Source: Escherichia phage BEU5. From it: a stretch of DNA of 64,000 nt. Position 1 is the stretch's first letter; each line of letters opens with the position of its first letter. Made by a program: the position numbers and the translations under genes. The stretch lies in the sequence record OM632664.1. The stretch is one strand, 5' to 3'. Of the stretch, positions 1 through 59,537 are shown in pieces. The notes below the pieces were generated by a model. The model was given only the letters and a program-made list of their open reading frames with translations, did not search any database and was not told the DNA's origin.

Positions 1-8
1 TCCGTGAA

Positions 9-506
9 ATGACTAATAGTAGTGAACTAGTTCAGGAATTATTCTTAGCCGAGTTACGTCGGCTAGATAAAGTGCTGGATAGTATCATTACACGTAATGG
101 GGAAACATTCGCTGTATACAACTCAACAGGGTTTCTGTATTTAGGGGAGTTCTATTCGAGTTCCCGTTCATCACAACAACCCCCTTCTGGTCATCGTCTG
201 GCTCTGGCTAATCACCTACTGGATGATATGCGGGAGTATCTGGAACAAGCAGGTAAACTTCTGCTAGAAGTCCATATGGTGAATCAGATGGTCTTTCGTC
301 TGGTTCAGGGCTGTAAGACTTATCAAGACGTTCGTGATGCATTGCCAGAATGCCTCATTGCTATGGATAAACAGGGTCATCTGAAATCCTTACAGAGAAC
401 CAGAAAGGCAGCATTTACTCTGGATAATGATGCTATGGCTCTCCGTCAGTATGAGAAAATCTTGCCGATTATCGAATACTATGCGGGAACCCATCTTATC
501 TTTTGA
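9..506 (+). CDS. hypothetical protein (frame open to window edge; may be 5'-partial)
   Basis: 165-aa ORF in track, co-oriented with downstream replication genes; no stop between position 3 and the ATG at 9; no motif recognised. Confidence 0.45.
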   Translation: MTNSSELVQELFLAELRRLDKVLDSIITRNGETFAVYNSTGFLYLGEFYSSSRSSQQPPSGHRLALANHLLDDMREYLEQAGKLLLEVHMVNQMVFRLVQGCKTYQDVRDALPECLIAMDKQGHLKSLQRTRKAAFTLDNDAMALRQYEKILPIIEYYAGTHLIF

Positions 507-513
507 GGTCTGT

Positions 514-2478
514 ATGCGTCACATTACATTCAACAATGAGGGTATCTACCCTATTGCTATCCTTACTACAACGTTACGTAAGGATGATATTGTCAAAGCA
601 TACATGGAACCCTGGGATGTAGATAAAGATTCAGTAATGATTCTTGAACTTCATACAGCCCCAGGGAAAAAGAAAACTCCTGCTAAAGAGATGCAGGAGT
701 TTATTACCCAAGAATTAGTGCCAGCATTCGAAGCAGCACAAACTCAGTATATCATCTGTGGTGATTCTGAATATTACAAACAGCTAACCAAACAAGGTAA
801 AGCTGATGCCAATATTGGCTATGTAATGGATTGTGCTTATGGGAACCAGAAAGTTATTTACGTTCCCAATTACAGACAAATCTTTTATGACCCGGATAAG
901 GTAAAGACTAAGATTGCTTTATCCATGCAGGCTCTGATTGATTATGTCTCTGGTTCTTATGTTGAGCCAGGAACTAAGATTATCCACTATGCTGATTATC
1001 CATTAACTCCAGAAGCTATATCTAAGTGGTTAGATAAGTTACTGGAGATGAATGTTCCATTAGCAGTAGATATAGAAACCTTCAGTCTGAAGCATTATGA
1101 CTGTGGTATAGGCACTATTACATTCTGCTGGAACAAGCATGAAGGGATAGCATTCCCTGTGGATTATGAACCAATTGAGGGGGCTACTGAAGCTCCTTAT
1201 GGTAGACAAGTTCACAACATGCTTGTTCGTTCTATGCTCAGAGACTTTTTTATTAAGTATCTGAACAGGCAGATGTATCACAATATTGCCTTTGACGTAT
1301 ATGCACTCATTTACCAGTTATTTATGACAGACCTTCTGGATACGGAAGGGTTGTTGCATGGCATGAGTATCATGCTAAGAAACTGGGATTGCACTAAGTT
1401 AATTACCTATCTGGCTACTAACTCTTGTGCGGGTAATAAGCTAAGTCTTAAAGACCAGGCTCAGGAATATGCTGGTAACTATGCTCAAGAAGAAATCAAT
1501 GACATTACCAGAATCCCATTAGCAGAGTTGTTGGAATACAACTTAGTGGATGGATTATGTACCTGGTATGTCTATGAAAAGCATTGGGATACTCTGGTTA
1601 ATGACCAACAGTTAGATGTTTATACAAACATCTTCAAACCTGCATGTGAAGATATTATTCAAATGCAGTTAACTGGTATGCCTATCAATATGAAGACAGT
1701 ATTGGAGGTAGAAGAGGCATTAACCCAAGACTATAACAATGCGTTAAAAACAATTGCTGACAGTAAAGTAATCAAAGATTTCACCCGTCTTCTTAATGAA
1801 GAATGGGTAGAAAAACAGAACCAGATTCTGAAGAAGAAACGAGTGACTTTAGCTGATGCTAAAGAACAGTTTAACCCAAACTCAGGTATTCAATTACAGA
1901 AGCTACTTTTTGAGTTTCTGGAGTTACCTGTACTTGGTTTGACTGCAAGTAAACTACCTGCTACTGGCAGTGGCATACTCAAGTCTTTGAAGAACCATAC
2001 CCAAGATACCAGTATTCTGGAAATTCTTGATGCTCTGATTGATTACAAAGCTGTAGATAAAATTCTGACAGCATTTATTCCAGCATTAAAAAATGCCAGA
2101 CAAGGACCAGATGGTTGGCATTATCTCTTTGGTAATCTGAACTTAGGTGGGACTGTATCAGGCCGCCTATCCAGTAGTGAACCAAACCTACAGAACCTAC
2201 CTTCTGGTTCCAGATATGCCAAGATGATTAAAAAATGCTTTGAGGCTCCTCCTGGATGGATATTCTGTGGGCTAGACTTTGCTTCTCTCGAAGACCGTAT
2301 ATCTGCTTTAACAACCAAAGACCCTAACAAGCTGAAGGTGTACATGGGTGTGACTGTTTATACAGTTACTATAGAAGGAGTTGACCATCATATCCGAGAT
2401 GATGATACAATCGTTTATGATGGTAAAACTTATACCGGTGAGGAGTTCTATGACGCTTTTACCCGTGGCCTTCTATGA
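514..2478 (+). CDS. DNA polymerase family A, N-terminal fragment (3'-5' exonuclease plus palm motif A)
   Basis: Exo motifs LAVDIETFS and YNLVDGL; motif-A-like GLDFASLEDR near the C-terminus. Start moved to ATG 514 (GAGG 6 nt upstream) to avoid overlap with the upstream ORF. Ends at TGA 2476-2478. Confidence 0.8.
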   Translation: MRHITFNNEGIYPIAILTTTLRKDDIVKAYMEPWDVDKDSVMILELHTAPGKKKTPAKEMQEFITQELVPAFEAAQTQYIICGDSEYYKQLTKQGKADANIGYVMDCAYGNQKVIYVPNYRQIFYDPDKVKTKIALSMQALIDYVSGSYVEPGTKIIHYADYPLTPEAISKWLDKLLEMNVPLAVDIETFSLKHYDCGIGTITFCWNKHEGIAFPVDYEPIEGATEAPYGRQVHNMLVRSMLRDFFIKYLNRQMYHNIAFDVYALIYQLFMTDLLDTEGLLHGMSIMLRNWDCTKLITYLATNSCAGNKLSLKDQAQEYAGNYAQEEINDITRIPLAELLEYNLVDGLCTWYVYEKHWDTLVNDQQLDVYTNIFKPACEDIIQMQLTGMPINMKTVLEVEEALTQDYNNALKTIADSKVIKDFTRLLNEEWVEKQNQILKKKRVTLADAKEQFNPNSGIQLQKLLFEFLELPVLGLTASKLPATGSGILKSLKNHTQDTSILEILDALIDYKAVDKILTAFIPALKNARQGPDGWHYLFGNLNLGGTVSGRLSSSEPNLQNLPSGSRYAKMIKKCFEAPPGWIFCGLDFASLEDRISALTTKDPNKLKVYMGVTVYTVTIEGVDHHIRDDDTIVYDGKTYTGEEFYDAFTRGLL

Positions 2479-2995
2479 ACAACGGTATAAGATTTCCGAT
2501 GAAGGTTTCATCTTAAATCTTGCAAACAATCAACCCCTAAAACCGACTCTCAATCCTAATGGATACCTTAAGGTTGGATTAGCTAATGGCGATGGTACAC
2601 ATCACCAAGAGCTACTTCATATTCTGGTAGCTAAACACTTCATCCCTAATCCTTATGGCTATGAACAGGTAAACCATAAAGACGGTAATAAACTGCATTG
2701 TCATAAGGATAATCTGGAATGGTGCTCTGCTACTCAGAATGTTGAACATGCACTTAAAACAAAGCTACGTCCTGGTTACATGTCTGCTGACGATAAAGAG
2801 AAGTATCTCTTTGAGGTGCTGGCAGGTAAGCAAGTTAAAGACATTGCTTTTGAAATAGGTAGGCGTCCTGAAACTTTGCATAAGATGCTCAGAACTACTG
2901 CTGACCGACTTGGTGTTCGAAATGAGTGGGATGATGTTATGAGGAGAAATAGAAAAGATGTTGCTTTACGACAGCTTGCCAAAATCAACTCATGA
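2450..2995 (+). CDS. HNH homing endonuclease (I-HmuI-like) inserted in the DNA polymerase gene
   Basis: HNH motif VNHKDGNKLHCHKDNLEWCSATQN; N-terminus YEQRYKISDEGFILN typical of HNH_3 enzymes. AGGAG at 2441-2445 precedes ATG 2450. Different frame from both polymerase fragments. Confidence 0.8.
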   Translation: MTLLPVAFYEQRYKISDEGFILNLANNQPLKPTLNPNGYLKVGLANGDGTHHQELLHILVAKHFIPNPYGYEQVNHKDGNKLHCHKDNLEWCSATQNVEHALKTKLRPGYMSADDKEKYLFEVLAGKQVKDIAFEIGRRPETLHKMLRTTADRLGVRNEWDDVMRRNRKDVALRQLAKINS

Positions 2996-3788
2996 CTTCA
3001 CTGGCAAGAAAATTGACAACGTAGTCAAAGCTGGGAGTTCATCAGGTTACGATGGGCATAGTCTTCGTGCATATGCTTACTTCGGTGAGATGATGCCTGA
3101 CATTGAAGATACGGTAGAGTCTGTTAATTCTATTCAGGAGAAGTACAAAGCATATCGTCAGGATTCTAAAGCACCTACCTTTGCTCTTACCTATCAGGGC
3201 ACATACATCACTTTGATGAAGAACTGTGGTTTCTCTGAACAGAAAGCTCGAATGGTTGAAGAACGTTATCACACACTTTATAAGGTAAGTGATGACTGGG
3301 TTCAGGCTAAACTAGACCAAGCTGCAAAAGATGGTTATGTAACCGTAGCATTTGGCCTGAGAGTCAGAACCCCCTTACTTCAACAAGTTATCCGTGGAAC
3401 CAGTAAAACTCCTTATGAAGCTGAAGCTGAAGGACGTACTGCTGGTAATGCATTAGGCCAAAGTTGGTGTCTTCTGAATAACCGTGCTGGTTCAGAGTTC
3501 ATGCGTATGGTGCGGAATAGTAAGCATCGTCTTGATATTCGTCCAAGTACCCATATCCATGATGCTCAGTATTTCCTTATCCGTGATGATATGGATGTTG
3601 TGATATATACCAATACTCATTTGGTGAAAGCAGTACAATGGCAAGACCATCCTGATATTGCTCATCCAGATGTTCATTTGGGTGGGGAACTCTCCTTATT
3701 CTACCCAACGTGGGCTAACGAGATTGAGATTCCAAACTACGCTACGCCCGAACAAGTCCATGAAGCAATCCAAAAGGCATTTAAATGA
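2958..3788 (+). CDS. DNA polymerase family A, C-terminal fragment (motifs B and C)
   Basis: Motif-B-like RQDSKAPTFALTYQG and motif-C-like HIHDAQYF. Own GAGGAG (2941-2946) and ATG 2958. Frame closed by TGA at 2940-2942. Confidence 0.75.
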   Translation: MLLYDSLPKSTHDFTGKKIDNVVKAGSSSGYDGHSLRAYAYFGEMMPDIEDTVESVNSIQEKYKAYRQDSKAPTFALTYQGTYITLMKNCGFSEQKARMVEERYHTLYKVSDDWVQAKLDQAAKDGYVTVAFGLRVRTPLLQQVIRGTSKTPYEAEAEGRTAGNALGQSWCLLNNRAGSEFMRMVRNSKHRLDIRPSTHIHDAQYFLIRDDMDVVIYTNTHLVKAVQWQDHPDIAHPDVHLGGELSLFYPTWANEIEIPNYATPEQVHEAIQKAFK

Positions 3789-18900: not shown

Positions 18901-21900
18901 TGGTATTAAACTCAACCATCATATCAATGGCTGGTTTCAGATTACCTTCCAGTAATTTAGTCAACTCGTCAGACATAACCTCACGAGTCATAGTATGGAC
19001 TTTAATGTCCAATGCCTGAGCCAGACCTAACTGGAATGCAGAGAAGTCTTCATTGTTCTGGTTCGATAAATCCAAAGTAGCTTTAGTAGGTAGGATAGCC
19101 TCACGAACCAGTTTGGCTGATTGAGGATTGTATTTACCTAACATCTGCATACGACCAACACGGGTCATATTATATGCATAGTGAATAGGCACAGTAGAGA
19201 TGTCTTCACTCTGTGCTCTTACCTGCTCAATGACGGAAAACAGTTGGTTGTAAGAGTCCTCTACTGAACGGTTCTTACCTTCCAGAGATTTAGCATGATT
19301 ATCATTAAGTAACTCTTTATTCAGAGTACCAGCACCCATCAGTTCGAGAATACGGTCTTTACCTAACGTCTCGTAGAATTGAACCATTGGAGTGTGTACA
19401 TAGAACTCTGTAGCCTGCTCTGCTTTCAATGCAGCCTTCTGTTCTGGAGTATTACGAACAGCAGGATTACGAAGCTGAGTATTAGCTACAGGAGGAATAT
19501 CATCACCAAAGAACATCTTCTCTGTAGGATTCACTAAAACAGCTTCTTCAATAGCAGTAGGGAAGCTATTAATTGGGTCGAAGGAATCCAGTTCAGTAAT
19601 GGTGTACAGACCAATAGTCTTCTTATTATCTGGGTCAATTTCTGACATATCCACGATGTTCTCTACAACATCAGTAGACTCTACAAATGCAGCCAGAATT
19701 TCCGCAGCCATTGCTGTAGGGATACCTTTGGTATAGCCCAATGGAGCATTTGGATTACGAGATAATCCCCAGTAAGACTCAATTTTCTGAGCCAGGGAAC
19801 TAACTGCTTCAGTGAGTGTCATACCAGTATCAAATTGCTCTACTAAACCTTCTGGCAGCAGAGCTTGGTCAATACCAGTAATAGCAGCAACATCTTTTGC
19901 ATCTTTGATAGCAGTATTGCTGGTAGCAGTAAGTCTCCACTGAAGACCTGCTAATACAGCAGTCTGTAGCAATTGCTCATTGTACTTAAAGGTATCCCCA
20001 TCCTGTTCAACGATGTTAAGTAACTTACCGCCTACCCAACGGTTGGCTTCTGTACCCTGAGCAAAACGTTTACCAACATCCTTAGTGTTAAGGAACTTAG
20101 CCAGACGGGAACGAAGAATATCAGCAATACCTTCCCCATGTTCCATGAGTTCTTTGTATCGCTTAATAACTTCCCCATTAAAAGCAGGATTAGCAACTTC
20201 TTTCTCAGTAAAGAGTTCATAACGAGCACGGGAAGACAGAGCTTGAGCTACATCTTTTAGAGGTGCTTCTGAACCAACAGTACGGGATTTCTGTTCTTCC
20301 GGTAAGGTAAAGGACAATTTGAAATAGTTCTTAATACCCTCTGCTTTAGAATCAGCAGTACCTACCAATGAGGGGTAAACAGCATCGATACCTTCTCTTA
20401 ATTCTTCTGTAACTGTGCTTTCTTTTGCAGAAGTTTCAGTTTCTTTAACAGATTCAGTAGGTTGCTTGATGGTGTCCTCATTAGTAAGGTTAACATCCTG
20501 TTTTTCAGACTGGTTCACAGGTTCTTTTATAGCCTGTGGGCTAGACTCTTTAGTAGTAGGTTCTGTTTTAACAGATTCACTAACAGGAGTCTTAGTCTGT
20601 ACAGTAGATGTAACTGGTTCCTGTTTTGTAACAGGAGTTTCTTTAACCTGATTCACGGAGTCAGCTTTCGGTTGAGAAGAAGCAACGTCTCGATTGCCTT
20701 GACGGAATGCCTTGACCACCTCAGCAGCAGGAGCGTTAAGACGTGAATCCAATGGAGTAACTTTTATATGACTGACCTTCAGTTCCGGGTAAGCCGAAGC
20801 GAGGGCATTAGCAATATCCGCTACCGTTTTCGCTTCAAGAGCAACTTGCTGGGCAAATTTAACCGACTTAGTGTCATAGGGATTGACCCCCAATCCGGTA
20901 CGGCTACGAACCCATTCTCTGTCAGCAGTAAGAGCTTGGTAGTGGACAGACTTATTCTTATCCGCATCCCCCGTAACAAGATGCTCATTCAACGCTCCAA
21001 CCTTATTCTGCATGTGCTGGGCGAACTGCATAAAGTCGTTCAGGTAAGCGGAGGCCAACTCGAAATTACCAGAGTTATACGCAGACCGAATCCTATTCGC
21101 ATGTTGCAACGCAGAGTATTGTCCTTCCTGAGTTCTGCTCTCATCCGTTTTAATCTGTTTACTCACAATGTCTTGAGGACGTAATCCAAGACGGGCAGCT
21201 TCTGCATCATATTCCCGTGCCCCCTTCAGGATTGCAGCAGCATTCTGAAGGGCAGCAATTTGGCGATTATTCAGTTTAATACGACCATCAGCAGCATGTT
21301 TAAGAACAACATTTACAGATTCTGGATTGAGCTTTTCAGGAGCTACTTCAGCAGCTAATGCTACGTTCTGCATTTCCTGTGGACTGGATTCTTCAGTCAC
21401 ATCCAAAGAACCATTCTGGGCAGATTCATTAATCATTCGATTAATAACATTCAGTGCACCAATTACTTTTGGTGTGTTCTGAATATTAGCTGTCAGATTT
21501 GTATAACGATTGAGTAACTCAATAGCCGGAGAATCTTTAGGAATGCTATCCAGTGCAGCAGGGTCACGGTTAATGAATTGCTCAAACTCTGAAACAGCAT
21601 CATACATATAAGATGCAGCTTCCATCAGTGCTTGAGGATTAGATTCATCTAATGTGTTAACTAGGTCTGCTAACTTTTGAATAACCTGTACTTGGTCAGT
21701 AGAACCAGCTACAGCATTACGAATATGCTCTGGTGCTTCCTGATAATTTTCAGGATTAAAACGAGTAGCATTCATTAAGTCAGAAACATACTGGTGTGCT
21801 GCAACTTTCTGTTCCGGAGTAGCATCAGTTGCTTCAACAGCATCACGAATAGTAACTTCTGCTTCTGGTGCTTGAGCCATAGCTTCTTGTGCTGCCTGTG

Positions 21901-23413
21901 CAACATAGTCATCAGCAACAGGAGATGCTTCTTCATTCTGCTTCATAACCCGCTCACCACGAGCTACCAAAGTGTTCTTAATAGGGGAAACAACCTTACC
22001 TGCTACACTACCAGCAGCTTTAACACCAGCCATTGTGGTACGCAATACAGGAGCAGTTGCAGCACCTGCTAAACGAGCAGCACCAGCCGGAGCCTGTACA
22101 ACACCAGCAGAACCAAAGCCATAAAGAGCACCTAAACCAGCTTGTGTACCGACACCTTTAAGCAAGTCTTGGTTCTTATCAATGTTTTGTTGCTGTGCAA
22201 TATTCTGAGCCAGTTGGCCTGTAGCACCCTGAACACCTTCTTCCACTGTTTCACGGGCAAGGTTCATACCTACAGCACCTAAAGAACCAGCACGGAAAGG
22301 AGCCATCTCAAAACGAGATACCAGAGGACCAGTTGCAGCAGCAATAGGTAATTGAATAGCAGCAGCAGTAAGACCAGTTTCAGATGCAGTCTGACGACGA
22401 GCCTGTTCTGGAGACATACCATCTTTAATATGTTGCTGATAAACAGGAGACTTCTCTAAGTCTTTAAGACTCATCTTCATAATTTCATCAGCAGTTTGTT
22501 GGTATGCACCACCAGCTTCCATTACACCAACACCAACCATACCTGGTGCAGCTCTGCCTACAGTAGAAGCAATACGAGCCAGGGACTGAGTACCAGTACC
22601 TGCATCAATAGCACCAGCCAATGCAGCACTACGAAGAGTATTTGCTGGAACAACTGCTTTACCCAGTAAAGATGCACCCTTTAATACAGGACCAGCACCT
22701 AATAGAGAACCTACCCCTTCTGCTAACCCATCAGAAATAATAGAGTCAGTTTGAGCAGCATTCTCAATTGAACCTACAAAATCACGTCCAAATTTAGATA
22801 AGGAAGCTACTATGTCATTAGTGCCTTCTTTCTTATCTGTTTGATACTGACGTTCACTCTCTACCTCACTCATTAAGTTACGAGCAGCGAAGAGCTTACG
22901 TTTATCTTGTAATGCTTGGCTTTGGGTAGCATGGACAGCATCATTAAACTTACTCAATTGTTGAGCAACAACAGCACCTGCGTCATCGTTGAGTAAGCCT
23001 GCCCCAAGAGCACCAATGCCCCCAAGGGTATTAACAAAACCAAGACCAACACCAGTAGCAATATCCCCCAGTTCTTCCCCAGGAGTTCTTGTAGTAACTG
23101 AATCATTGAATACCTGGTTCCCTGCATCAGCACGAGCGTTGATAAGTTGTAAGCCTTGCTCAACCCCATACTTATTCATGATTTGCATTGGAGTCAGATT
23201 CATGAAATCTGATTGCACTGTCCCTGGTTCAAATGCATTAGCCCCAACATTACCAGTACGGGCAGCTTGCATTTGATAAGCAGCATCAGGAGAAACAAGA
23301 GGAGTAGTGACACCTTGTTCAGCTTTCTTCTGGGCGGTTGCAGTAGAGACGTCAACTTGCTTTGCATTGGTTACGCTGTCTGCGAACCCAGCCAGTCTAT
23401 CAAATACTGACAT
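12911..23413 (-). CDS. virion-encapsidated RNA polymerase (N4 vRNAP/gp50-like), ~3,500 aa
   Basis: Single giant ORF (track 3,506 aa from TTG at 23431); ATG at 23413 with AGGAA RBS gives ~3,500 aa, the diagnostic size of the N4 vRNAP, which sits at the same boundary between middle and late genes. Confidence 0.8.
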   Translation of the reverse strand: MSVFDRLAGFADSVTNAKQVDVSTATAQKKAEQGVTTPLVSPDAAYQMQAARTGNVGANAFEPGTVQSDFMNLTPMQIMNKYGVEQGLQLINARADAGNQVFNDSVTTRTPGEELGDIATGVGLGFVNTLGGIGALGAGLLNDDAGAVVAQQLSKFNDAVHATQSQALQDKRKLFAARNLMSEVESERQYQTDKKEGTNDIVASLSKFGRDFVGSIENAAQTDSIISDGLAEGVGSLLGAGPVLKGASLLGKAVVPANTLRSAALAGAIDAGTGTQSLARIASTVGRAAPGMVGVGVMEAGGAYQQTADEIMKMSLKDLEKSPVYQQHIKDGMSPEQARRQTASETGLTAAAIQLPIAAATGPLVSRFEMAPFRAGSLGAVGMNLARETVEEGVQGATGQLAQNIAQQQNIDKNQDLLKGVGTQAGLGALYGFGSAGVVQAPAGAARLAGAATAPVLRTTMAGVKAAGSVAGKVVSPIKNTLVARGERVMKQNEEASPVADDYVAQAAQEAMAQAPEAEVTIRDAVEATDATPEQKVAAHQYVSDLMNATRFNPENYQEAPEHIRNAVAGSTDQVQVIQKLADLVNTLDESNPQALMEAASYMYDAVSEFEQFINRDPAALDSIPKDSPAIELLNRYTNLTANIQNTPKVIGALNVINRMINESAQNGSLDVTEESSPQEMQNVALAAEVAPEKLNPESVNVVLKHAADGRIKLNNRQIAALQNAAAILKGAREYDAEAARLGLRPQDIVSKQIKTDESRTQEGQYSALQHANRIRSAYNSGNFELASAYLNDFMQFAQHMQNKVGALNEHLVTGDADKNKSVHYQALTADREWVRSRTGLGVNPYDTKSVKFAQQVALEAKTVADIANALASAYPELKVSHIKVTPLDSRLNAPAAEVVKAFRQGNRDVASSQPKADSVNQVKETPVTKQEPVTSTVQTKTPVSESVKTEPTTKESSPQAIKEPVNQSEKQDVNLTNEDTIKQPTESVKETETSAKESTVTEELREGIDAVYPSLVGTADSKAEGIKNYFKLSFTLPEEQKSRTVGSEAPLKDVAQALSSRARYELFTEKEVANPAFNGEVIKRYKELMEHGEGIADILRSRLAKFLNTKDVGKRFAQGTEANRWVGGKLLNIVEQDGDTFKYNEQLLQTAVLAGLQWRLTATSNTAIKDAKDVAAITGIDQALLPEGLVEQFDTGMTLTEAVSSLAQKIESYWGLSRNPNAPLGYTKGIPTAMAAEILAAFVESTDVVENIVDMSEIDPDNKKTIGLYTITELDSFDPINSFPTAIEEAVLVNPTEKMFFGDDIPPVANTQLRNPAVRNTPEQKAALKAEQATEFYVHTPMVQFYETLGKDRILELMGAGTLNKELLNDNHAKSLEGKNRSVEDSYNQLFSVIEQVRAQSEDISTVPIHYAYNMTRVGRMQMLGKYNPQSAKLVREAILPTKATLDLSNQNNEDFSAFQLGLAQALDIKVHTMTREVMSDELTKLLEGNLKPAIDMMVEFNTTGSLPENAVGVLNTALGDRKSFVALMALMEYSRYLVAEDKSAFVTPLYVEADGVTNGPINAMMLMTGGLFTPDWIRNIAKGGLFIGSPNKTMNEHRSTADNNDLYQASTNALMESLGKLRSNYASNMPIQSQIDSLLSLMDLFLPDINLGENGALELKRGIAKNPLTITIYGSGARGIAGKLVSSVTDAIYERMSDVLKARAKDPNISAAMAMFGKQAASEAHAEELLARFLKDMETLTSTVPVKRKGVLELQSTGAGAKGKINPKTYTIKGEQLKALQENMLHFFVEPLRNGITQTVGESLVYSTEQLQKATQIQSVVLEDMFKQRVQEKLTEKAKDPTWKKGDFLTQKELNDIQASLNNLAPMIETGSQTFYIAGSENAEVANQVLATNLDDRMRVPMSIYAPAQAGVAGIPFMTIGTGDGMMMQTLSTMKGAPKNTLKIFDGMNIGLNDITDASRKANEAVYTSWQGNPIKNVYESYAKFMKNVDFSKLSPEALEAIGKSALEYDQRENATVDDIANAASLIERNLRNIALGVDIRHKVLDKVNLSIDQMAAVGAPYQNNGKIDLSNMTPEQQADELNKLFREELEARKQKVAKAKAEVKEETVSEKEPVNPDFGMVGREHKASGVRILSATAIRNLAKISNLPSTQAATLAEIQKSLAAKDYKIIYGTPTQVAEYARQKNVTELTSQEMEEAQAGNIYGWTNFDDKTIYLVSPSMETLIHELVHASTFEEVYSFYQGNEVSPTSKQAIENLEGLMEQFRSLDISKDSPEMREAYADAIATIEGHLSNGFVDPAISKAAALNEFMAWGLANRALAAKQKRTSSLVQMVKDVYQAIKKLIWGRKQAPALGEDMFSNLLFNSAILMRSQPTTQAVAKDGTLFHSKAYGNNERLSQLNQTFDKLVTDYLRTDPVTEVERRGNVANALMSATRLVRDVQSRGFNMTAQEQSVFQMVTAALATEAAIDPHAMARAQELYTHVMKHLTVEHFMADPDSTNPADRYYAQQKYDTISGANLVEVDAKGRTSLLPTFLGLAMVNEELRSIIKEMPVPKADKKLGNDVDTLLTNAGTQVMESLNRRMAGDQKATNVQDSIDALSETIMAAALKRESFYDAVATPTGNFIDRANQYVTDSIERLSETVIEKADKVIANPSNVAAKGVAHLAKLTAAIASEKQGEIVAQGIMTAMNQGKVWQPFHDLVNDIVGRTKTNANVYDLIKLVKSQISQDRQQFREHLPTVIAGKFSRKLTDTEWSAMHTGLGKTDLAVLRETMSMAEIRDLLSSFKKVKDEISTLEKEIQNQAGRNWNLVQKKSKQLAQYMITGEVGNNLLRNAHAISRLLGERITNGPVADVAAIDKLITLYSLELMNKSDRDLLSELAQSEVEGMEFSIAYMVGQRTEEMRKAKGDNRTLLNHFKGYIPVENQQGVNLIIADDKEFAKLNSQSFTRIGTYQGSTGFRTGSKGYYFSPVAARAPYSQGILQNVRNTAGGVDIGTGFTLGTMVAGRITDKPTVERITKALAKGERGREPLMPIYNSKGQVVAYEQSVDPNMLKHLNQDNHFAKMVGVWRGRQVEEAKAQRFNDILIEQLHAMYEKDIKDSNANKSQYVNLLGKIDDPVLADAINLMNIETRRKAEELFGKDELWVRRDMLNDALGYRAASIGDVWTGNSRWSSSTLDTVKKMFLGAFGNKAYHVVMNAENTIQNLVKDAKTVIVVKSVVVPAVNFLANIYQMIGRGVPVKDIAVNIPRKTSEINQYIKSRLRQIDAEAELRAAEGNPNLVRKLKTEIQSITDSHRRMSIWPLIEAGEFSSIADAGISRDDLLVAEGKIHEYMEKLANKLPEKVRNAGRYALIAKDTALFQGIQKTVEYSDFIAKAIIYDDLVKRKKKSSSEALGQVTEEFVNYDRLPGRFRGYMESMGLMWFYNFKIRSIKVAMSMIRNNPVHSLIATVVPAPAMFGNVGLPIQDNMLTMLAEGRLDYSLGFGQGLRAPTLNPWFNLTH

Positions 23414-23475
23414 AGTAGGTTTCCTATACAAACTTATATCTATTAGAAATCACACTATACCTAGTGTAAGGACGA

Positions 23476-48335: not shown

Positions 48336-48473
48336 ATGTGGTATATAACAGTTAAAGGTTTATCCGAACCAGTGATGATAGATAGCCTGGCCTTCATAGA
48401 AGTAGGTCATCCTATTCTTATAGAAGGTAAGTTGTATGAAGTTGTTAGTATTTATAAGAGATAAATAGGAAGT
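48336..48473 (+). CDS. possible small protein (45 aa), not in ORF track
   Basis: ATG preceded by AAGGA; ends TAA at 48471-48473. Confidence 0.25.
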
Positions 48474-48630
48474 CTATTAGATAGATACCCTATAATTTTT
48501 TTCTTAGTGAAAATAGTCATAGTTACTTGTGAGTTTAGTATTTGGTGGGGCTACACCCCTTACACCATAAGCACCCCCCCCGGTCTTTACTAGTGTAGCC
48601 TTAGCCTACCCCACCTTGTACACGTTACAC

Positions 48631-48650
48631 GTTGCTTCGCAACTTATGGA
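48631..48650 (+). promoter_or_regulatory. hairpin promoter candidate (N4 vRNAP early-promoter type)
   Basis: GTTGC-TTC-GCAAC (5-bp stem, 3-nt loop; template-strand loop GAA) followed by TTATGGA; a G lies 11 nt downstream of loop centre. Confidence 0.5.
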
Positions 48651-48694
48651 CATGTTGTCCGTATCTTATCAATCAACTATTGGAGGCTAATACT

Positions 48695-49021
48695 ATGACT
48701 ACTCAGGCTAACGTTCGTATGACTGTAGGAACTCTGTTGGGTACTGTTAATGAAGCAGCAACTACTGTAGCTGATACATTCGGTACTGCTACTAAAGCAG
48801 TAGGTATGCTTAATCGTTATGTAACTAAACAAGCAGATAAACAAATCATTCGTGACAAATTAGAAATGCATGAGTTTACCAATAAACTTATTGAAGAAAC
48901 TGCAATGCAAGAAGCTATTCGTCAGAAACAAATCTTAGACTTCTGCAAAGATGAACAAAACAAAGAATTGTTCTCTAATGCCTATGACCGTCTTAGCAAA
49001 ATCTTAGCAGACTCTAAATAA
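48695..49021 (+). CDS. early protein, hypothetical
   Basis: Start at ATG 48695 (GGAGG RBS) downstream of the hairpin promoter; 108 aa. Confidence 0.55.
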   Translation: MTTQANVRMTVGTLLGTVNEAATTVADTFGTATKAVGMLNRYVTKQADKQIIRDKLEMHEFTNKLIEETAMQEAIRQKQILDFCKDEQNKELFSNAYDRLSKILADSK

Positions 49022-49097
49022 TAACAAACAAATGGAGGCTCCTCGGAGTCTCCTTTTACATAGAACCGATAGTTCAATAACTATCTACTTTAAAGAT

Positions 49098-49119
49098 AAG
49101 AAGCTCCGCTTCTTTTGGA
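49098..49119 (+). promoter_or_regulatory. hairpin promoter candidate (N4 vRNAP early-promoter type)
   Basis: AAGAAGC-TCC-GCTTCTT (7-bp stem, 3-nt loop; template loop GGA) followed by TTGGAT; G at +11 from loop centre. Confidence 0.5.
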
Positions 49120-49225
49120 TGAAGTAATGCATCCAATCCTGTATGAAATCTTAACCTTTTGTCTGGGATTACTTACCGACAAAGTAGTCTCAACTAATCA
49201 AAATCAACTATCTGGAGAGTACAAA

Positions 49226-49612
49226 ATGGCTATCACTACTTTTGCTAAAACCTTTGGTCAGGCTTCTACTAAAACTGAATCCAACAATGGTTCTCGCCCG
49301 AAAGCTCAGTTCTGGATTAACGTTGGCTATGTAGCTAATGAAGGCACTGAAGATGAACGTTTCATCTCTCTGCCTACTGGTATTCCACTGGATACTCAGG
49401 AGCATCTGCCAACCAATTCCTCTAACGAAGACTTCCGTGCAATGCGTTGTGCACAGAACGATTTGTTAGACCAACTGATGGAATTTGCTAAGACTCTGGA
49501 ACCAGGTCAGGAAGGAGTTATCTCACTGCAAGTTCAACTTCGTCGAGTTAAAGAAGAAGCTCCTGCTATCTCAGCAAGTGAGAATAAATATGCTCGTAAA
49601 CTGACTTTCTAA
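49226..49612 (+). CDS. early protein, hypothetical
   Basis: Start at ATG 49226 (GGAGAG RBS); the track start at 49115 would precede the predicted transcription start. Confidence 0.5.
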
Positions 49613-49620
49613 TCTCTATA

Positions 49621-49650
49621 GGACTACCTTCGGGTAGTCCTTTTTAATTT
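49621..49650 (+). terminator. rho-independent terminator
   Basis: Stem GGACTACC/GGTAGTCC with loop TTCG, then TTTTTAATTTT. Confidence 0.75.
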
Positions 49651-49754
49651 TAACTATCTAAATACTAAAGTAGAGATTTTGACCCTTTTCGACGAAGGGA
49701 TACTAAAAAGTAATGGATAGTTTGAGCAGATGTTTTAGAAGAAGGAGTATACAG

Positions 49755-50069
49755 ATGCATCCTCTTATAAAACGATTCCTGATGGACTATCAGGAGTGGT
49801 TAGATAATGGAGCCAGTGAACCTCATTACCTGTTTGATAGGGGTAGTGGACTGTGTGTTCAACTAGGCAAGTATCTTAGAAGACAGCCAATCAGTGAAGA
49901 AACAGTAGATGCTCTGTGTAAGAGCTTTACTCATTTACTTCCTGATAATGATACAAATCTACCATTCAATGTAGATGTTCTCGACTACATGATGGAGTGT
50001 TCTGATGGAAGATGTCATCTGAACCAAAGTCGAATTAATTGGATTAAGAGTCAGTTGGAGAGTAAGTAA
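49755..50069 (+). CDS. hypothetical protein
   Basis: ATG 49755 with AAGGAG RBS; 104 aa. Confidence 0.5.
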   Translation: MHPLIKRFLMDYQEWLDNGASEPHYLFDRGSGLCVQLGKYLRRQPISEETVDALCKSFTHLLPDNDTNLPFNVDVLDYMMECSDGRCHLNQSRINWIKSQLESK

Positions 50070-50072
50070 ATT

Positions 50073-58478: not shown

Positions 58479-59537
58479 ATGGCTAGTATTGATTCTATTG
58501 CCGTATGTAATCCACGGCAGGTACGTAAATTTGTTGAACACTGTATCCGTTCAGGATTGGTTCCATTTATCACTTCATCTCCTGGTATGGGTAAATCTGC
58601 AATTGTTCATCAGATTGCAGAAGACTTTGGCCTGAAACTGATTGACCATCGTCTGTCTACTTCAGCACCAGAAGACCTGTCAGGTCTGCCTCGTTTTAAA
58701 GAAAATGGTCGTGCTGAATTTGCTCCATTTGACGAGCTATTCCCACTGGAAGGGGATACTGTACCTGAAGGATTTAATGGCTGGCTTCTCTTTCTCGATG
58801 AGTTTAACTCTGCTCGTAAAGAGATTCAGGCTGCTGCTTATAAATTGGTACTCGACCGTATGACTGGTCAGAAGAAGCTACATCCTTATGTAGCTATCGT
58901 ATGTGCTGGTAACAAAGCAACTGACCGTGCCATTACTAATAACCTGTCTACAGCTATGCAATCACGTCTTATTCATCTGGAAATGGAGACTGATTTTGAT
59001 GTCTTTATGGAAGATGTAGCTATCCCTAACAAATGGGATGAGCGTGTAATTGCATTCCTGAATGCTAACCCAAATAAACTGAATGATTTTGAACCAGACC
59101 ATCAAGAGAAGACTTTCTGTTGTTCTCGTACATGGGAGTTCGTTAACAAGATTGTTTCCATTCTCCCACCGGGACCGATTGATAGTGAAATGACTCTGCT
59201 ATTAGCAGGCACTATCACCTCTGGTGTAGCAACATCATTCGTCCAGTTTACTCAGGTCTATAGCAACATGGTGTCTTTGAATGAGATTTTGGATAATCCT
59301 AAGAAAGCTCGTATGCCTGAAGACAATAACCTGTTGTGGGCTGTAGTCACTTCACTGATTAACAATACTGACGAAGATAATCATTCGAAAATCTTTGATT
59401 ACGTTGAACGTATGCCATTTACGTTCAAGGTTTTGTACTACCGTTCCGTAGGTAGTCTGGTTCCAGCTTTGGTTAAATTACCGAACTGGCGTGTTGCTGC
59501 AATCACATTATCTAAATACGTTCATGGTTCCAATTAA
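58479..59537 (+). CDS. MoxR-like AAA+ ATPase
   Basis: Walker A SSPGMGKSAIV, Walker B LLFLDEFNSA (MoxR-type DExN), sensor VCAGNKATD. Confidence 0.65.
   Translation: MASIDSIAVCNPRQVRKFVEHCIRSGLVPFITSSPGMGKSAIVHQIAEDFGLKLIDHRLSTSAPEDLSGLPRFKENGRAEFAPFDELFPLEGDTVPEGFNGWLLFLDEFNSARKEIQAAAYKLVLDRMTGQKKLHPYVAIVCAGNKATDRAITNNLSTAMQSRLIHLEMETDFDVFMEDVAIPNKWDERVIAFLNANPNKLNDFEPDHQEKTFCCSRTWEFVNKIVSILPPGPIDSEMTLLLAGTITSGVATSFVQFTQVYSNMVSLNEILDNPKKARMPEDNNLLWAVVTSLINNTDEDNHSKIFDYVERMPFTFKVLYYRSVGSLVPALVKLPNWRVAAITLSKYVHGSN

Follow-up and report, generated by a model that had tools for sequence, protein, structure and literature searches.

The hairpin at positions 49098–49114 of the DNA from Escherichia phage BEU5 (OM632664.1; the whole 64 kb stretch analysed is referred to as the window) is almost certainly the orthologue of the N4 early promoter P2, identical to it in sequence and predicted to be read by the virion RNA polymerase (vRNAP). 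The label P2 was assigned on the basis of an oligonucleotide sequence in a 2026 paper (PMC13492108) together with a review (PMC4496689). From the predicted start at 49117 the promoter would drive gp2, whose conserved core begins at Met 49226.

Sequence and folding of the hairpin

A reading made from the letters alone (the sequence-only reading) had described a 7-bp stem, a TCC loop and TTGGAT downstream, and all three were found letter for letter at 49098–49120. The elements of the promoter are as follows:

49098–49114, + strand: P2 promoter hairpin, arms AAGAAGC (49098–49104) and GCTTCTT (49108–49114), loop TCC (49105–49107, -12 to -10)
49113–49116, + strand: TTTT spacer, read from the sequence (template AAAA, -4 to -1)
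49117, + strand: predicted transcription start +1 (RNA G, template C), 11 nt past the loop centre and eight past -8

The stem is perfect over its 7 bp, the 3-nt loop is centred at 49106 (-11) and TTGGAT follows directly 3' of the hairpin at 49115–49120 (TTGGATG on the + strand). Transcription runs rightward on the + strand, and the template strand reads 5'-AAGAAGC GGA GCTTCTT-3' with a GCGNAGC mini-hairpin core. The template loop region, GCGGAGC, agrees with this motif, which is termed a 'mini-hairpin' in PMC13037366. Folding of the template strand as single-stranded DNA gave exactly the P2 hairpin as the minimum-energy structure (-5.3 kcal/mol, z = -3.1), with 1 of 200 shuffles as good. The sequence GAAGCNNNGCTTC occurred a single time in the 64 kb window, compared to 0.03 expected occurrences.

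Genomic context

A 2-kb query round the hairpin matched the Escherichia phages BEU44 and BEU13 at 100% and coliphage N4 (EF056009 / NC_008720) at 98.2%. Judged by its sequence, the window is that of an N4-type coliphage. N4 position 1 corresponds to window position 48543 and the offset near the hairpin is 48541, window 49117 being N4 576. The hairpin is identical to N4 557–573, and only two aligned positions, neither of them within the hairpin, differ from N4 between 49020 and 49240. The P2 site as a whole corresponds to N4 557–576 of 70,153 bp and lies in the gp1/gp2 interval, as required of P2 by position. The left end of N4 maps within the window at approximately 48543, right behind homologues of gp70–72, and this internal location indicates that the record is a circularly permuted assembly in which the terminal repeat was collapsed. 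GC skew and the layout of open reading frames also agree with N4, with early and middle genes running rightward from ~48.6 kb and late genes on the minus strand.

A hairpin promoter of this kind calls for its cognate polymerase, and the same genome encodes it:

12911–23431, - strand: virion RNA polymerase gene, an ORF of 3506 aa (PHROG 2206 'virion RNA polymerase', E = 0, profile positions 5–3405 of 3406)

Recognition determinants and the predicted start

N4 early promoters are conserved from -17 to +1 and contain a GC-rich heptamer centred at -11 with inverted repeats on both sides (PMC4496689). According to the same review, vRNAP recognizes -11A/G, -10G, -8G and +1C of the template, the template loop follows the rule 3'-A(-12) R(-11) G(-10)-5' with a closing pair 3'G:C5' (-13:-9), and four template A's serve as a 'molecular ruler' from -8 to +1. 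The published range of stem lengths is 5–7 bp. All published determinants were found at the P2 site, where the template strand has -13G, -12A, -11G, -10G, -9C, -8G, AAAA at -4 to -1 and +1C. The non-template bases C(-13) T C C G(-9) at 49104–49108 give template G, A, G, G, C, while template -8G pairs with non-template C 49109, a position that was invariant in 17/17 aligned promoters. Furthermore, the reverse complement of 49100–49118, CCAAAAGAAGCGGAGCTTC (19 nt), equals positions -17 to +2 in the oligonucleotide that goes by the name of 'hairpin P2 promoter' in the 2026 cryo-EM study (PMC13492108). The proposal that the hairpin is a promoter was therefore upheld by its identity to N4, by the P2 oligonucleotide core and by the full set of published determinants. 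The proposed start at about 49117 likewise agrees with the position predicted from the sequence (loop centre 49106 plus 11 nt), and centre+11 was the first G of GGAT in 15/15 distinct orthologous promoters.

The orthologous promoter of one metagenomic relative (L065, SKEF01003253.1) has the loop TAC, not TCC. This results in a pyrimidine at template -11, against the published purine requirement, and reflects a sequencing error, a naturally occurring down-mutation or a recognition rule that is not absolute.

Promoter-type hairpins within the window

The promoter-type motif was defined as a stem of at least 5 bp round the core GC-TYC-GC, with G at centre+11. A scan of the window for perfect hairpins (stem of 5 bp or longer, loop of 3 nt) gave 112. 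Three of these carried the motif, centred at 48637, 49106 and 53095, all on the + strand and within 4.5 kb. The mean count in dinucleotide-preserving shuffles was 0.0145, and three or more were reached in 0/2000. The three sites sit 5' of gp1, gp2 and RNAP1/gp15, all early genes on the coding strand, which fits the positions of N4 P1, P2 and P3. A brief reference to 'four early promoters (P1-P4)' is made in a 2026 paper; a fourth site with the promoter-type motif was not present in the 64 kb window.

At the P1 site (48632–48642) GTTGC-TTC-GCAAC is followed by TTAT-GG, with the centre at 48637, +1 at 48648 and the start of gp1 roughly 45 nt downstream; its template strand contains GCGAAGC. The P3 site (53088–53102) consists of AAGCTGC-TCC-GCAGCTT followed by TTTT-GG, with the centre at 53095 and +1 at 53106, and is located 38 nt 5' of the RNAP1 (gp15) start at 53144. 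Both resemble P2 in the core GC-TYC-GC, in G:C at -17:-5, in GG at +1/+2 eleven nt past the centre, and in lying on the same strand in the same left-end region. P1 differs from P2 by its 5-bp stem, the loop TTC (template GAA), the spacer TTAT and the gene that it drives, gp1, whereas P3, with its TTTT spacer, differs by the stem AAGCTGC and in driving the RNAP II subunit genes.

Conservation and covariation of the stem

Sequences upstream of gp2 homologues were gathered from phages in GenBank, from IMG/VR and from metagenome contigs. Every Enquatrovirinae member examined (N4, KP8, Gamaleyavirus and Moovirus types) has a hairpin with this core in the same place, and the GenBank record of KP8 labels the orthologous 22 nt 'early promoter'. 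The stems themselves vary and include AAGAAGC, GGCTGC, AGACGC, AAGATGC and TAGCTGC.

Covariation was analysed in 17 promoters, namely 15 orthologues and the P1 and P3 sites of the window. The inner 5 bp were paired in 17/17. Pairs -13:-9, -14:-8 and -17:-5 were invariant, while -15:-7 was seen as CG, UA and AU and -16:-6 as AU, CG and UA. This gave a stem covariation score of 0.424 versus 0.143 in shuffles, a value reached by 0/500, and 92.4% paired cells versus 77.7% in shuffles, with two-sided changes in 18 cells. Sliding the register brought pairing down to 25–50% in all cases. Compensatory changes hence maintain the stem while the contacted bases stay invariant. As the sixth pair was formed in 14/17 and the seventh in 11/17 promoters, the 7-bp stem represents the long end of the 5–7 bp range and is no requirement.

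These results bear on two other readings of the inverted repeat. Together with the T's behind it, the repeat could be a rho-independent terminator or a 3' RNA element of the gp1 transcript and no promoter at all, a reading suggested by a 7-bp stem followed by TTTT. The terminator scan, however, omitted the P2 hairpin and placed a far stronger GC-rich terminator 45 nt upstream, right behind gp1, and the hairpins of relatives lead into AAA, TTAT or TTGA and not into a T-run. Invariant loop and closing bases combined with covarying stem bases follow the rules of vRNAP, unlike a terminator, and the hairpin sequence is that of the P2 promoter used in biochemical work. A terminator at this site is accordingly very improbable. 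The large number of perfect hairpins in the window might also suggest a functionless chance palindrome, but only three of the 112 have the GC-TYC-GC core with G at +1, far above the shuffle expectation, all three lie 5' of early genes on the coding strand, and 15 distinct orthologous sequences retain the P2 site with changes that compensate each other. Conservation and statistics effectively refute this reading, whose probability we consider negligible. A sigma-70 promoter scan returned no candidate at the P2 site.

Start of gp2

The features downstream of the promoter are as follows:

49117–49134, + strand: 5'-terminal RNA stem-loop, GGAUG (49117–49121), 8-nt loop, CAUCC (49130–49134), from the RNA fold
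49127–49129, + strand: in-frame ATG, 10 nt past +1, the gp2 start in the N4 GenBank record (N4 position 586, 161 aa)
49164–49192, + strand: ACCGAC stem-loop, stem of ~10 bp, loop ACCGACA (49175–49181), from per-sequence folds and an arm-swap test
49214–49219, + strand: Shine-Dalgarno sequence GGAGAG, 6 nt 5' of ATG 49226
49226–49612, + strand: gp2 core gene, 128 aa, 100% identical to N4 gp2 residues 34–161 (tblastn), with a coding signature by codon position

The open reading frame track starts the gene at TTG 49115, a start that the sequence-only reading had taken to be unused. This was confirmed, since TTG 49115–49117 spans -2 to +1 and is devoid of a ribosome-binding site; the codon is an artefact of the ORF finder. 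The further claim that the gene begins at 49226 behind a leader of ~109 nt stood with respect to Met 49226, which has the GGAGAG sequence, the PHROG 4099 match and the tblastn alignments in its favour. It fell short in that the ATG at 49127 had been overlooked and the leader is not featureless.

PHROG 4099 matched the long ORF with E = 6e-50, profile positions 1–134 of 134 being aligned to residues 34–161 and position 1 to Met 49226. Homology in tblastn started at residues 1–7 of the short form in Pseudomonas, Erwinia, Achromobacter, Stenotrophomonas and other phages, and in several of these phages only 40–70 nt separate a hairpin promoter from the homologous Met. The 19-nt block ATCTGGAGAGTA(C/T)AAAATG, which encloses the GGAGAG, was unchanged in 13 aligned relatives save for one C/T change (Moo19). 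A match to TCTGGAGAGTA(C/T)AAAATG was the selection criterion for a set of 30 relatives and is no independent evidence there. The ribosome-binding site CTGGAGAGTA recurs at 58466–58481, 5' of another N4 gene. On these comparative data, Met 49226 is well supported as the start of the conserved core and as the family-wide start. Neither a Pfam family nor a solved structure was found for the gp2 family.

Across more than 80 related phages the public records are inconsistent with regard to the gp2 start and give a long form, a short form or a frameshifted pseudogene. The homologue is split into two CDS in pSb-1, is a pseudogene in phage Jura, and is widely mislabelled in GenBank as 'RNA polymerase RNAP1 subunit A' or 'integrase'.

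With the promoter being real, gp2 might still be translated wholly or partly from ATG 49127, which would yield a protein of 161 aa with a hydrophobic N-terminal extension and turn most of the leader into coding sequence. The N4 GenBank record, which comes from the laboratory that characterised gp2, starts the gene at 586, corresponding to 49127. The codon at this position was ATG or GTG in 30/30 distinct relatives despite a variable surrounding loop, and the extension measured 93, 99 or 132 nt in these relatives, all multiples of 3, with zero in-frame stops. This open frame makes an N-terminally extended isoform conceivable and again speaks against a featureless leader. In a set of 17 sequences the extension frame had zero stops, compared to 29 and 42 stop triplets when the two alternative frames were read, and non-synonymous replacements were milder in it (mean BLOSUM62 -0.02 versus -0.99 and -0.77). 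The architecture of the extension peptide is also conserved, a hydrophobic stretch of 14 residues (Kyte-Doolittle about +2) preceding a polar linker, and gp2 is found in the membrane fraction (review PMC4496689).

Several observations weigh against translation from 49127. The ATG has no Shine-Dalgarno sequence, is 10 nt from the 5' end of the transcript and is placed within a stem-loop, at the 3' end of its loop, whereas a strong and invariant ribosome-binding site precedes the internal Met 49226. The extension lacks the third-position excess of a coding sequence, diversity at the three codon positions being 0.276/0.176/0.258 as opposed to 0.135/0.080/0.260 in the gp2 body, and its synonymous fraction of 0.16 equals the wrong-frame value. 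The variable part of the extension covaries as an RNA stem, so that its conservation is explained without translation, and U-rich sequence gives rise to hydrophobic codons anyway. PHROG 4099 and homologues from Erwinia, Pseudomonas Zuri and others begin at the short-form Met behind short leaders. The pI of 5.20 reported for gp2 (Boon et al.) equals that of the short form (5.20) and differs only slightly from that of the long form (5.24), which makes it a weak argument. Taken together, translation wholly or partly from 49127 is plausible but doubtful, and a longer isoform made in addition to the 128-aa protein is a sizeable minority possibility. Scans of IMG/VR and metagenome contigs for further relatives yielded only close variants, with no decisive frameshift or stop. 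One IMG/VR relative (L027, 3300045988_012650) has a 33-nt insertion in the leader comprising two GAA-loop hairpins, GTCGC-GAA-GCGAC and CCATAC-GAA-GTATGG, and its upstream frame stays open.

Structure of the leader

Relatives retain the 5'-terminal stem with loops of 5–9 nt, one of them with the compensated stem GGAUUC/GAAUCC in the alignments. The 5' end of the P1 transcript forms a stem-loop as well, GGACA-UGU-UGUCC (48648–48660).

In the second stem-loop, the loop ACCGAC was invariant in 11 distinct sequences while the seventh loop base varied and the arms differed and covaried. The hairpin is common to Enquatrovirinae, Pseudomonas phage inbricus and Achromobacter phage Axy22, the last two belonging to another subfamily (at least two Rothmandenesvirinae). 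When arms were swapped between sequences, native hairpins had a mean of -12.5 kcal/mol compared to -7.0 for the chimeras, and the native mean was reached by 0/98. G-U pairs in the arms indicate that the structure forms on the RNA (+) strand. Among the ACCGAC sites of the window only 49164–49192 forms a strong hairpin. From an ungapped alignment of this hairpin, RNAalifold recovered nothing but the outer stem, as loop length and bulges shift the register. The fold of the whole leader was no more stable than shuffles (z = -0.8), the two local hairpins alone standing out. A conserved complement to the ACCGAC loop (GUYGGY) was not found nearby, and an Rfam E-value scan of 48400–53500 returned nothing relevant, its one match, to the L20 leader, being below threshold and located at the gp2 terminator. 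A further exact match to CTTTTGTYTGGG at 58406 lies inside a small hydrophobic ORF without the rest of the element and was dismissed as coincidence.

The 5' stem-loop with ATG or GTG in its loop, the covarying ACCGAC hairpin and the maintained open frame together suggest that the interval separating P2 from the gp2 core could be a post-transcriptional control region and not a passive leader, a tentative reading that we regard as rather unlikely. If it were true, the amount of gp2 could be set there, e.g. autogenously, with gp2 as a single-strand-binding protein attaching to the mRNA that encodes it. The region could also set how much of a short soluble isoform is made relative to a long one with a hydrophobic N-terminus, and this ratio would tune the switch from early to middle transcription. 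Autoregulation by gp2 and control of isoform choice are put forward as hypotheses only for the role of the ACCGAC hairpin.

Transcription unit and proposed mechanism

The terminator scan yielded two sites flanking P2 and gp2:

49034–49057, + strand: intrinsic terminator after gp1, stem GGAGGCTC / GAGTCTCC, 4-nt loop, TTTT
49620–49651, + strand: intrinsic terminator downstream of gp2, stem of 9 bp AGGACTACC / GGTAGTCCT, then a T-run

The gp1 terminator stands between the P1-gp1 unit and P2, and the hairpin after gp2 is marked as a terminator in the record of phage Jura. The two terminators delimit P2 and gp2 as a compact early transcription unit, which may get read-through from P1 as well. In the interval between the gp1 terminator and P2 an inverted repeat, GATAGTT-caat-AACTATC, followed by TACTTTA, was observed at 49068–49092. 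GATAG...CTACTT(T) motifs occupy the same place in Gamaleyavirus, Moovirus, inbricus, Axy22 and Erwinia phages, and words resembling TATCTACTTTA (at most 2 mismatches) were mildly enriched in the window (46 versus 33 expected). This inverted repeat may be a middle-promoter or regulator site.

Based on the N4 literature, the following sequence of events is proposed. After injection, host DNA gyrase would supercoil the left genome end, whereupon the inverted repeat would extrude as a cruciform. E. coli SSB would then melt the non-template hairpin while the unusually stable template hairpin 5'-GAAGC GGA GCTTC-3' would remain, to be bound via -11G, -10G and -8G by the polymerase carried in the virion (gp50, encoded at 12911–23431). 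Initiation with GTP would take place at the template C 11 nt past the loop centre, i.e. at 49117, and the transcript, which would encode gp2, the single-stranded-DNA-binding cofactor of N4 RNA polymerase II, would end at the terminator at 49620–49651. The 128-aa core would be translated from ATG 49226 behind GGAGAG, with the preceding 109 nt forming the 5'-terminal stem-loop and the ACCGAC-loop hairpin. The extrusion dependent on supercoiling and SSB, the binding of vRNAP and a rifampicin-resistant start in vivo were demonstrated for N4 according to the literature, and for the isolate at hand we infer them from its sequence identity to N4.

Comparison with known systems

The hairpin is a correct rediscovery of an early promoter already known from N4, whose P2 is the promoter used when vRNAP structures were determined by crystallography and cryo-EM. 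The hairpin rule proved to work on this DNA, selecting exactly three sites that match the positions of N4 P1–P3. With regard to annotation, the position of P2 excludes any gp2 start upstream of 49117 and the comparative data give Met 49226, while the conserved leader structures offer a small lead on the control of RNAP II cofactor levels.

The P2 sites of N4 and the window are identical from -19 to beyond +100 and agree in position, determinants and downstream gene. The only difference is the base at -20, T here and G in N4, which is outside the stem. At the level of the genome, the isolate is ~98% identical to N4 and was assembled in permuted orientation. Another known system also has a structured 5' leader located before the gene of a single-stranded nucleic-acid-binding protein, but the gp2 leader has neither sequence nor structural similarity to it; that system supplies no more than a hypothesis for the ACCGAC hairpin.

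The early promoters of Klebsiella phage KP8, known from annotation, and of Pseudomonas phage LUZ7, mapped by ONT-cappable-seq, likewise have a short stem, a 3-nt loop and a G start. In both phages such hairpin promoters stand directly 5' of the gene for an RNAP II cofactor, gp2 in KP8 and Drc in LUZ7. Drc is a functional analogue of gp2 and is expressed from strong early hairpin promoters, located by cappable-seq (PMC9163698). The LUZ7 promoters differ from P2 in that the start is 13–14 bp from the hairpin centre and the stem has at least 4 bp, and Drc is unrelated to gp2 in sequence.
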